From a virus (lineage: Duplodnaviria; Heunggongvirae; Uroviricota; Caudoviricetes), in the IMG/VR virus record IMGVR_UViG_2609460332_000001: a stretch of 24,516 nt of DNA; one strand, 5' to 3'. The position numbers were made by a program, and so were the translations under genes. The first letter of the stretch is position 1, and every line of letters begins with the position of its first letter. Shown one piece after another: positions 2,203 through 4,569 of this stretch. The notes beneath the pieces were generated by a model. It saw only the letters and a program-made list of their open reading frames with translations, was not told the origin of the DNA and did no database searches.

Positions 2203-2697
2203 ATGAACCGTGTTCTGTGTGTGGTGATTATTGTCATGCTGGTAGCCTGTGGTGTGCTTAGTCTGGGGCTGAATCATTACCGCGATAACGCCATCACCTA
2301 CAAAGCGCAGCGCGATAAAAAAGTCAGTGAGCTGAAACTGGCGAATGCCACTATTACTGACATGCAGCAGCGCCAGCGAGATGTCGCTGCGCTTGATGCC
2401 AGATACACGAAGGAATTAGCCGATGCGAGAGCTGAAAATGAAACTCTGCGCGCTGATGTTGCCGCTGGTCGTAAGCGCCTGCGGGTCAACGCCACCTGCC
2501 CCGGTACCGTGCGTGAAGCCACCGGCACCTCCAGCGTGGATAATGCAACCGGCCCCCGACTGGCAGACACCGCTGAACGGGATTATTTCATCCTCAGAGA
2601 ACGGTTGATGACAATGCAGAAGCAGCTGGAAGGGGCGCAGGAATATATCCGCACTCAGTGCACTAAGCTGGCTTTTTATTATCCGGAGGATACATGA
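2203..2697 (+). CDS. Rz: i-spanin Rz
   Basis: [40 protein letters not shown]... closely matches recalled lambda Rz (N-terminal TMD, coiled-coil periplasmic domain). Start at ATG 2203 rather than ORF-track 2119. Confidence 0.9.
2423..2608 (+). CDS. Rz1: o-spanin Rz1 lipoprotein, embedded in the +1 frame of Rz
   Basis: [25 protein letters not shown]...[32 protein letters not shown]: lipobox LVVSAC and Pro-rich body, as lambda Rz1; wholly inside Rz. Confidence 0.85.
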
Positions 2698-2909
2698 AGA
2701 AATTACGGGTAACCGTAGAACCTTTTCAGGGAACAATTCCGTTCCGTATTTTGCAGCGTGGTCGTGTTCTTGTTGAAGGTTCGTTCAGTGGTAAATGTAC
2801 GCAATTACACTCCCGGACCTTTCAGGTGAATGCCACGAATGAAGAGCTAACCGTGGAGTGTACGATGAATGCCGCTAAATGCCGCATGGTATTACAGCCA
2901 GTGTGTTGA
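2694..2909 (+). CDS. hypothetical protein, 71 aa, translationally coupled to Rz
   Basis: ATGA start/stop overlap with Rz; [37 protein letters not shown]...; no recognised family. Confidence 0.4.
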
Positions 2910-3107
2910 GCGACCTTATTATCCATGCGCGGTATTGTCGCCGTATTCCTGCATTAACAGAGACCGCAGCCCGACAGGGAGACTCCTCTGCGCGAGTGTG
3001 CGGGGATAATCAAAAACGATACACACCGGGGTTTACCGCGTTAACGGAGCGCGGCGTTGTCCCCTCATAGTCGCCTGTCCGGTGCGATGGTGGAAGAAAC
3101 CGAACGT

Positions 3108-3308
3108 TCATTTCTCGTTATTTGTCATGCTGGCCGGGCGCAGATGCGTTGCATCTGTTGCCAGCCTTCTCCTGCAGGCTTCAATAACCCACGCTGAAAA
3201 GTTACCGGACCCTTTATGCTCAAGGGCGATGTTGATCTGTTCAATTATGTGATTGGGGAAACGGATATTGCGGGTTGTGGTTCTGCGGGTCCGGTTTTTC
3301 GATGACAT
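3108..3308 (-). CDS. ribbon-helix-helix (Arc/MetJ/CopG-type) DNA-binding protein, 66 aa
   Basis: MSSKNRTRRTTTRNIRFPNHIIEQINIALEHKGSGNFSAWVIEACRRRL... fits the RHH pattern (beta strand RNIRFP, then two helices); RBS AAGGA 7 nt upstream of ATG at 3308; only convincing minus-strand gene in the late operon. ORF track extends to 3368, but the internal start has the RBS. Confidence 0.6.
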   Translation of the reverse strand: MSSKNRTRRTTTRNIRFPNHIIEQINIALEHKGSGNFSAWVIEACRRRLATDATHLRPASMTNNEK

Positions 3309-3349
3309 ATTTATTTCCTTTACTGATTGCCATATGACGGGGATTTTAC

Positions 3350-3715
3350 ATGGCTGAGCTTCGTACACTCCAGAGCAGAATCAAAACACTGAATACCCGA
3401 CGGGTGAATATTCTGAAGGGGGAGCAGCGTCGTGTCAGTGGCAGTGCACGTGTTTCCCTCAAGCGTCATATCTGGCTGAGGGACGCCGGGCAGTGCTGTA
3501 TCTGTGGTCGTGTGGTTGACCTCTGTGACAGTGAACTCGATCACCGAATTGCACTTCAGTTCGGTGGTGGTAATGAGGAGACGAATCTTTGGACGCTCTG
3601 TGCCGAATGCCATCGACAAAAGTCTGCTCGTGAAGCGGCGAGTGGTATGCCGGACCCGACGCTGCCGGAGGTGTCCGGAGGTAGTGGCAGAGAGGACGAC
3701 ATCATCGGACTGTAA
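3350..3715 (+). CDS. HNH endonuclease (packaging-associated)
   Basis: CxxCG...DH...NL..LC..CH..K HNH motif (CCICGRVVDLCDSELDHRIALQFGGGNEETNLWTLCAECHRQK); located directly upstream of cos/terS as in HK97-like cos phages. Confidence 0.85.
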   Translation: MAELRTLQSRIKTLNTRRVNILKGEQRRVSGSARVSLKRHIWLRDAGQCCICGRVVDLCDSELDHRIALQFGGGNEETNLWTLCAECHRQKSAREAASGMPDPTLPEVSGGSGREDDIIGL

Positions 3716-4005
3716 CCCAACCCGGGGGGGGTATCATCCGGCGTAAAAAACGATCGCTTTGGACACCGCGCCCCCTCTCACGCAGAGAAAAAATTCCCGT
3801 TTCAGGGCAGTTAACATGTTAACTGGCTGCCCGGGCATTTTTGCGGTTTTTATCTTTATTATTCAGTTTGTTGTGCGGAAAAAATGTTAACAGGCTTTTT
3901 CAGCAAATGTTAACCAGGCAGCAGTTAACATTTGCGGCATGAGACGCCGGGAAAAATGGGCTGAACCATACCCGGCTGAGTGCGTTCTGGACCCGGGAGG
4001 AGGCT
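3716..4005. promoter_or_regulatory. candidate cos / packaging-initiation region with an array of ATGTTAAC motifs
   Basis: Five GTTAAC cores within 120 bp (3810-3815, 3818-3823, 3886-3891, 3909-3914, 3924-3929) in both orientations, including the 18-bp palindrome CAGTTAACATGTTAACTG; G8 run at 3724-3731; AT-rich; between HNH and terS. Confidence 0.4.
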
Positions 4006-4569
4006 GTGCTGACAACGCAAAAACGAAAATTTGCGCTGGCGCTCATGTCCGGGAAAAACAAAACAGCGTCAGCCATTGCCGCCGGTTATTCGGCGAAGAC
4101 CGCCAGGGTTAAAGGCTCGCAGCTGGCAAAAGATCCTGAGGTGCTTGCGTTTATAGCCCGTAAACAATGCGAGACGGTGGAGGTGGATGAGGTTCCTGTT
4201 TACCGGCAGAAAAAATCAGAGCAGGAGGATAAACCCCGTCGCCGTGAGGCGGCTGCAATACCACAGCCGGACGAAAACAATCTGGAGATGCCACCGTCCG
4301 CGGTGATGTCTCCTGGTATTGAATATATGGAGGATGGTCTTCCCGATCCGGTGAAAGCCATGGGGCGGATCCTGGTGGAAAACCTCTGCATTGATCCGAA
4401 ACTGGCACTGGATGCGGCCTGGCGTCTGGCGCAGTTCACGCACCATAAAAAAGGGGATACCGGGAAAAAATCGGCAAAAGGTGATGCCGCGAAAAAAGCG
4501 GCTAACCGTTTTGCGGTGCCACCGCCCCCCCGACTGGTGGTGAATAACGATAATGAGGGCAACGGATGA
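4006..4569 (+). CDS. terminase small subunit (P27-family-like)
   Basis: GTG start after GGAGGAGG RBS; N-terminal region (KRKFALALMSGKNKTASAIAAGYSAKTARVKGSQLAKDPEV) typical of TerS; ATGA overlap with the next gene. Confidence 0.8.
   Translation: MLTTQKRKFALALMSGKNKTASAIAAGYSAKTARVKGSQLAKDPEVLAFIARKQCETVEVDEVPVYRQKKSEQEDKPRRREAAAIPQPDENNLEMPPSAVMSPGIEYMEDGLPDPVKAMGRILVENLCIDPKLALDAAWRLAQFTHHKKGDTGKKSAKGDAAKKAANRFAVPPPPRLVVNNDNEGNG

Follow-up and report, generated by a model that had tools for sequence, protein, structure and literature searches.

What is the function of a small gene that reads against the late operon of a temperate phage, at the point where its packaging genes begin? This question is raised by positions 3108-3308 (minus strand) of a 24,516-nt stretch of DNA, the IMG/VR record IMGVR_UViG_2609460332_000001, hereafter called the window, which represents a lambdoid, HK97-type prophage of E. 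coli. We found that the gene belongs to the ylcI/ynfO (DUF3950) family and is a conserved fixture at the lambdoid right end, where the packaging module starts back-to-back with it, as HNH-TerS-TerL in the window and as cos-nu1-A in lambda-type phages. Its 66-amino-acid product, MSSKNRTRRTTTRNIRFPNHIIEQINIALEHKGSGNFSAWVIEACRRRLATDATHLRPASMTNNEK (translated from the open reading frame, ORF), is likely to adopt a ribbon-helix-helix (RHH) fold, and we lean, if slightly, towards the reading that YlcI is an RHH DNA-binding repressor made while the late operon is silent.

The initial annotation had proposed a genuine small gene with a good ribosome-binding site, opposed to the late operon, and this was confirmed by the ORF itself, the AAGGA sequence preceding it, the family matches and the pattern of substitutions. 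Compared over 52 codons, the window gene and the copy in phage lambda gave pS = 0.64 and pN = 0.067, a ratio of 0.10; the gene is real, and its protein is under strong purifying selection. RefSeq annotates exactly the same interval and strand as WP_000095741.1, YlcI/YnfO. A mechanical list of ORFs also offers an 86-amino-acid alternative that starts with GTG at 3368. The DNA similarity to the lambda copy, however, starts precisely at the ATG and ends at about codon 50, and a diverged relative in the Shiga toxin (Stx) phage Stx2a_WGPS6 has its ribosome-binding site, as GAGGA, at the equal position in otherwise different sequence. Consequently, the 66-amino-acid reading is right and the GTG start is not needed. 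About codon 50 is also where the window gene has its mosaic junction with other phages.

The window protein scored 69 bits against Pfam DUF3950 (PF13132; cut-off 25, E = 3e-19) and 35.2 bits against NCBIfam YlcI_YnfO_N (NF041551; cut-off 30), exceeding both curated thresholds, and it matched phrog_949 (function unknown) in PHROG with E = 8e-33. The genomic context is that of the family as well, namely the opposite strand between the lysis and terminase genes of a prophage. The gene is therefore a member of a catalogued family and not new as an object, an identity that went unrecognised in the initial annotation. Its K-12 relatives, YlcI of the DLP12 prophage and YnfO of Qin, belong to the family by the same thresholds, are 68-87% identical to it over residues 1-52, and are likewise opposed to the late genes and placed between the lysis region and the terminase genes; they differ from it in the C-terminal tail after approximately residue 50 and in having cos-nohD/nu1 as divergent neighbour, a place taken in the window by the HNH gene of an HK97-type packaging module.

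The family is narrow: a set of 1.84 billion proteins contains 99 cluster representatives of it, many from frameshifted assemblies, and its range is limited to Enterobacterales. Matches to ylcI also appeared in about 30 assemblies of unrelated organisms (Cohnella, Pedobacter, Polaromonas, an Arcanobacterium 'plasmid', metagenome-assembled genomes). The contigs concerned measure 3.5 kb or about 48.5 kb, and those that were compared all matched the lambda right end with 100% identity, a sign of contamination with lambda or sequencing-control DNA. Distant members in Rouxiella and Pantoea (37-58% identity) are solitary chromosomal genes outside prophages that adjoin cytochrome bd/cydDC genes, or copper-related and TonB-receptor genes. 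A tested 1.5-kb segment around the window gene was 100% identical to the induced phages vB_EcoS-569R3, vB_EcoS-705R7 and vB_EcoS-783R2 and to many chromosomes, including that of an O25b:H4 strain, and was found in 2,063 of 5,426 complete E. coli genomes; being present in more than a third of them, the gene is common as well as already catalogued. We found no functional study in the literature on ylcI, ynfO or DUF3950. The gene ynfO is listed among the uncharacterised genes of K-12 (PMC11551758), and ybcW-ylcI is listed as a convergent excludon, a pair of overlapping transcripts, which at least 50% of the examined K-12 RNA-seq samples contained (PMC12288877). The RHH assignment, the lambda copy, the linkage to the packaging module and the operator-like arrays in satellites reported below are not described in the papers that were searched.

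The position of the gene was followed in 80 IMG/VR loci encoding a YlcI at least 95% identical to the window protein. In all 78 relatives whose contigs permitted the check, the HNH gene lay exactly 41 bp from ylcI, while the distance from ylcI to Rz or to a 71-amino-acid ORF that follows Rz in the window ranged from 198 to 2953 bp among the 80. Rz and the 3' end of ylcI enclose a cargo-insertion junction, and variability is confined to this 3' side. The initial annotation had placed the gene in a hotspot for morons, that is, for genes expressed on their own in the lysogen. This holds for the DNA between Rz and ylcI but not for ylcI itself, whose position is invariant, which is followed by no terminator-like site (none was found by a scan of 2910-3107) and which has weak promoter candidates. 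The equivalent position in lambda-type prophages and in lambda counts likewise against a moron-like insert: in every Escherichia or Shigella locus examined with flanks, the homologue is divergent from nu1 and about 390 bp from it across cos, and its 3' neighbours vary (ybcW-like, ybcV-like, KilA-N). The suggestion that the gene might form a two-gene module with the 71-amino-acid ORF was not borne out, YlcI being encoded in 155 phage records and the ORF in 26; the ORF adjoins YlcI in only about 37 of the 80 near-identical loci and is not an obligate partner.

In lambda itself the copy encodes 64 amino acids and occupies complement(48109..48303), with 199 bp between it and the right cohesive end. 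J02459 does not annotate it, and a genome-wide CRISPR interference screen of lambda gene essentiality leaves it out of its gene list, which ends with lambdap79 (PMC10695390). The 'orf-64' of the lambda literature was considered as a possible name for this copy and rejected, as it is a different ORF, lambdap73, lying between Q and S. In phi80, the segment from the lysis genes to cos (42500-46150) contains no YlcI/YnfO homologue and carries other small genes, including rha; ylcI is thus common, but not universal, in lambdoid phages.

We infer the fold of YlcI from several features of its family. The conserved core consists of K/R-x-I-R-F-P, a helix, a loop of G, S and N residues and the stretch NFSAWV-I/L-E/D-A-C, and in 85 homologues I15, R16, F17, F37 and S38 are invariant. 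Traits typical of RHH sequences are present, namely a strand of alternating hydrophobic and polar residues (N14-I15-R16-F17-P18) and a capping loop (G33-S-G-N-F-S38) before helix B. Two AlphaFold 2 (AF2) monomer models have an extended N-terminal segment and helices at residues 19-32 and 37-55. Fold searches gave mixed results overall: for the first model, the top structural neighbours were RHH antitoxins (TacA/DUF1778, ParD, CopG-type, VapB), and for the second Foldseek returned only ParD2, Rv0301 and NikR, all RHH proteins and none of them significant. When a profile of 85 family members was aligned by hhalign with a profile of 23 Arc-family (PF03869) proteins, P was 0.00098 at a probability of 22%, and the alignment was in register across the strand and helix A (NIRFP/NLRWP); control alignments with single sequences of unrelated small proteins gave 0.36-0.72.

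Arc of phage P22 contacts bases through Gln9, Asn11 and Arg13, and in the hhalign register these residues match T12, N14 and R16 of YlcI; R16 is invariant, and positions 12 and 14 differ between satellite lineages. Like YlcI, Arc and the P22 protein Mnt are small phage-encoded proteins. They differ in that the sequence homology is not significant at the probability given above, and in that the phage ylcI locus has no ant-like target gene and adjoins cos instead of lying in an immI region.

A second search, seeded with divergent DUF3950 members, uncovered a subfamily in satellites, namely chromosomal islands inducible by phages (PICIs) and capsid-forming PICIs (cf-PICIs), of Proteus, Morganella, Providencia, Serratia, Yersinia, Dickeya, Pectobacterium, Xenorhabdus, Klebsiella, Citrobacter, Salmonella and E. 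coli, with the consensus MATGxKNNKSxxKGIRFPHELIEEIDASVEREK..NFSAWVLDACGRKLK. In these PICI/cf-PICI-type elements it is the sole opposite-strand gene between alpA and the Icd-like/primase operon. The order int, alpA, variable genes, DUF3950 (opposite strand), small genes and primase, often followed by capsid, protease and portal genes, was found in 43 of 45 IMG/VR loci, and in an annotated E. coli example the divergent neighbour is the gene of an Icd-like cell-division inhibitor. Upstream of the satellite gene lie three palindromic boxes of 10-12 bp, at about -102, -79 and -30 from the ATG, with spacings of 23 and 47 bp, the proximal one abutting or overlapping the gene's own -10 element (TATgGT). 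The box arms (GTG and CAC) and the spacers (GTCAA and TGTAT) are kept across the satellite lineages; the box centres differ, and they track the five residues that precede I-R-F. Lineages with the segment STTKG have the box GTGyAyAAACAC (e.g. GTGCACAAACAC), those with xYKG have GTGTTTAAACAC, SAKKH goes with GTGTG(C/A)ACCCAC, SAKKN with TGTGCGCACA, and SATKG with GTGTT(A/G)GGGCAC.

Box identity was 0.90 for pairs sharing the same five residues (n = 34) versus 0.68 for pairs with different ones (n = 344), a difference reached in none of 5000 permutations. Proteins at least 85% identical over the 20 residues after the segment, but with differing segments, mostly have different boxes, and proteins at most 75% identical over those 20 residues that share the segment have the same boxes; as an exception to this rule, SSRVG and SAKKH occur with a common box, GGTGTGCACCCA. 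Such a pattern fits an autoregulated RHH repressor with diversifying specificity, and it makes the satellite protein a candidate for the master repressor of Gram-negative PICIs, whose global repressor is unclear and whose phage inducer is unidentified (PMC6092414). The DUF3950 gene goes unmentioned in the PICI literature that we consulted (PMC6092414, PMC10111431 and the cf-PICI preprint). The PICI protein Rpp was considered as a DUF3950 member and rejected, being a winged helix-turn-helix protein instead.

The satellite subfamily, and only that subfamily, resembles Stl and Rpr of Gram-positive PICIs such as the Staphylococcus aureus pathogenicity islands in being divergent from the replication operon and in having lineage-specific candidate operators in a shared control region. 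Stl is a large helix-turn-helix protein, its fold is unrelated to that of DUF3950, and the window gene resides in a phage rather than in a satellite. A few satellites encode proteins (P0188 at L002 4714-5103; P0217, P0218 and P0220) that fuse DUF3950 to the N-terminal helix-turn-helix of TerS; the Terminase_2 helix-turn-helix of the fusion is 69% identical to the window TerS over 36 residues, and the Pfam thresholds are exceeded by each of the two domains. The satellite DUF3950 genes also have, about 150 bp upstream, a conserved hairpin, GCCCGG..loop..CCGGGC, followed by a T-rich run (e.g. L146 5835-5885), and the hairpin loop holds a GTG-N6-CAC box that is invariant across lineages; the hairpin's role could be that of a terminator or of an RNA element in a P4-like immunity region. 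In the Pasteurella satellite Pmp7, a tblastn match was observed antisense to an annotated repressor gene.

From the analogy with satellites, together with the invariant back-to-back layout with HNH/terminase or nu1/A, a repressor role may be inferred for the phage copy. YlcI would consist of an RHH core of approximately 50 residues with a short, variable and disordered tail, and would work as a dimer, repressing at specific DNA sequences that it reads through its N-terminal arm and beta-ribbon; the N-terminal segment TTTRN is invariant in both window-type and lambda-type phages, two groups with unrelated DNA upstream of the gene. The gene would be expressed from its own weak promoter, in or near the AT-rich 41-bp gap, as long as the late operon is silent, i.e. 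in the lysogen, and would be switched off by the convergent, Q-antiterminated late transcription. Our best guess is that YlcI would damp the adjacent, potentially harmful HNH/terminase operon during lysogeny, or else a target elsewhere.

A number of observations weigh against this proposal. As to the fold, the RHH-like protein described in the initial annotation is upheld by the sequence pattern and by fold evidence leaning towards RHH, but no Pfam RHH family and no PDB sequence was matched significantly by the window protein or by two family profiles run against the PDB. The strand was formed in neither AF2 model, and the predicted local distance difference test (pLDDT) values were just 67 and 70; the missing strand is what would be expected of monomer models if the strand exists only in the dimer. 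As to the operator, we found no palindrome or repeat common to the upstream regions of the window-type and lambda-type copies, no satellite-type box in the window or the lambda ends, and, save for one GTTAAC pair discussed below, no two boxes 22-25 bp apart in the window, at the lambda ends or in the remaining 19.5 kb of the prophage. The promoter candidates of ylcI are weak (8-9 of 12 matches), and the evidence for expression outside lytic growth, in the lysogen, is indirect and comes from the DLP12 paralogue (PMC12288877), not from the window phage. The phi80 segment that lacks a homologue implies that ylcI is dispensable for a lambdoid life cycle. Finally, physical linkage confounds the co-variation seen in satellites: only about 100 bp separate the boxes from the N-terminal codons concerned, and block inheritance therefore contributes to the signal.

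A bolder conjecture, which we regard as unlikely, would make DUF3950 proteins RHH master repressors of mobile elements at large, including the global repressor of Gram-negative PICIs and cf-PICIs, with operators specific to the immunity type. The phage copy would then be a working homologue beside cos, which either silences the HNH/terminase operon in the lysogen, so that cos is not cleaved in the chromosome, or communicates with satellite repressors via mixed dimers. The RHH assignment, the lock to the packaging module and the operator-like arrays of satellites render ylcI testable; if the phage copy does guard terminase expression or talk to satellites, it would be a new regulatory element in the best-studied temperate phage. 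The window gene itself is of moderate weight, and the lead at the level of the family is the greater one.

Cross-talk between helper and satellite may also be considered on its own, with the phage YlcI acting on PICIs or cf-PICIs either by inducing them through inactive mixed dimers or by silencing them through occupancy of satellite operators. Invariant residues of the core and the likely interface (I15, R16, F17, F37, W40, V41 and C45) are common to the phage and satellite proteins, which differ in the N-terminal reading segment; lambda, a known helper of E. coli PICIs, has a ylcI copy; and the PICI literature leaves the global repressor unclear and names no phage inducer (PMC6092414). Conservation of the core, however, is expected from a common fold alone, phi80 is a strong helper that activates alpA despite its lack of a homologue between the lysis genes and cos, and the missing satellite-type boxes noted above count here as well. 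We regard cross-talk as very unlikely.

The initial annotation had also proposed that the protein might regulate packaging through the GTTAAC array situated between HNH and TerS. As a packaging accessory, YlcI would bind at or near cos, e.g. at this array, and modulate the access of terminase, for instance by shielding the cos of the prophage. The gene is always the nearest or next-nearest to cos, some satellites encode DUF3950 fused to the TerS helix-turn-helix, and the array, with five of the eight GTTAAC sites in the whole window, includes two ATGTTAAC boxes that are 23 bp apart, as satellite boxes are, and that belong to a similar TGT..ACA class of palindrome. The array nevertheless lacks the three-box layout with 23 and 47 bp, and it occurs only with the HNH/Terminase_2 module, recurring in an Stx phage that shares this HNH/TerS module. 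The segment TTTRNIRF is identical across phages with unrelated cos regions, and no GTTAAC was found within 700 bp of the lambda-type loci; since the array is absent where the reading segment of YlcI is identical, it tracks the terminase type. Moreover, 2 of 98 array-bearing loci have no YlcI. The array is probably a terminase recognition (cosB-like) region and not an operator of YlcI, and an accessory role in packaging is very improbable.

An orphan antitoxin, likewise suggested in the initial annotation, would neutralise a toxin encoded elsewhere, such as the toxin of a toxin-antitoxin or abortive-infection system of another element, with the variable tail binding the toxin. RHH antitoxins (TacA, ParD2, VapB, CopG-type) are the best structural neighbours of YlcI and are of comparable size, there is a weak PHROG match to a HicB-like protein, and many antitoxins have, like YlcI, a hypervariable and disordered C-terminal tail. 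These tails, however, measure just about 10-25 residues and change at the mosaic junction. A type II antitoxin has an adjacent, co-transcribed toxin, whereas ylcI is flanked on its 5' side by HNH or cos-nu1 and on its 3' side by variable cargo that is convergent or otherwise oriented; no toxin-like gene adjoins it in the phage, satellite and chromosomal contexts that make up the roughly 180 loci examined, PADLOC returned no match, and the position of the gene is tied to the packaging genes rather than to any partner gene. We consider this role highly improbable. Least probable of all, YlcI might be made right after injection for an early role, e.g. anti-defence or takeover, as lambda DNA is packaged left end first, so that the right end, from which ylcI reads inward, leaves the capsid first, and as the distance of the lambda copy from that end would place its promoter in the terminal segment or across cos, but an RHH repressor has no obvious anti-defence role and the satellite and chromosomal homologues do not lie at DNA ends.

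The features of the locus are collected in Table 1; the geometry given in the initial annotation was confirmed.

Table 1. Features around ylcI, with positions numbered along the window.
Feature	Position	Strand	Basis or remark
71-aa ORF	2694-2909	plus	coupled to Rz (ATGA overlap with the Rz stop); convergent with ylcI; phrog_2571, E = 1e-25; conserved
Convergent non-coding gap, 198 bp	2910-3107		between the 71-aa ORF and ylcI; inner edge of the variable-cargo junction
ylcI/ynfO-family (DUF3950) coding sequence, 66 aa	3108-3308	minus	ORF; Pfam, NCBIfam and PHROG matches; RefSeq WP_000095741.1; pN/pS
Variable, probably disordered C-terminal tail, residues 51-66	3108-3158	minus	pLDDT <50 at residues 57-66; tails differ among homologues
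Predicted RHH core, residues 10-55	3144-3281	minus	N-arm and strand ~10-18 (TTTRNIRFP), helix A 19-32, loop GSGNFS, helix B 37-55
Shine-Dalgarno AAGGA	3316-3320	minus	7 nt 5' of the ATG (3306-3308)
Divergent gap between ylcI and HNH, 41 bp	3309-3349		AT-rich (34% GC); GC content, promoter scan
Candidate -10 TAAAAT	3343-3348	minus	abuts the HNH start codon; promoter scan
Weak promoter-like alternative	3410-3449	minus	inside HNH; -35 CTGACA 3433-3438, spacing 17, -10 CAGAAT 3410-3415
Single GTGCACTGCCAC box	3438-3449	minus	5' of the CTGACA/CAGAAT candidate
HNH endonuclease, first gene of the packaging module (HNH, TerS, TerL)	3350-3715	plus	Pfam HNH, phrog_589, RefSeq; ATG at 3350
GTTAAC / ATGTTAAC repeat array	3806-3935		between HNH and TerS

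In RefSeq, the gene order is holin, YdfR, lysozyme, small ORFs, Rz, the 71-aa hypothetical protein, YlcI/YnfO (minus strand), HNH, TerS, TerL, and the head and tail genes. No Rfam family matched within 2500-4200. The TAAAAT candidate is kept in Stx2a_WGPS6 along with the HNH-side half of the 41-bp gap. The GTGCACTGCCAC box was set aside, since it is not conserved in the Stx-type relative L064 and probably arose by chance. A 25-nt imperfect inverted repeat (76% complementary; 3262-3286 and 3375-3399) flanks the divergent start regions of ylcI and HNH; it could form a long-range hairpin that encloses the ribosome-binding site and start codon in either transcript, and it may also be due to chance.

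The gene had further been described as the only convincing one on the minus strand. It is a real minus-strand gene, but one of two annotated, because the Prokaryotic Genome Annotation Pipeline calls a second minus-strand coding sequence at 649-921, a hypothetical protein of 90 amino acids which overlaps the end of the YdfR-family gene and had no match in Pfam or PADLOC. At the far end of the window, the Ail/Lom-family gene that follows the gene of the tail tip protein J is truncated, and the transposase gene of ISEc12 (IS21-like) comes after it (23507-24516).

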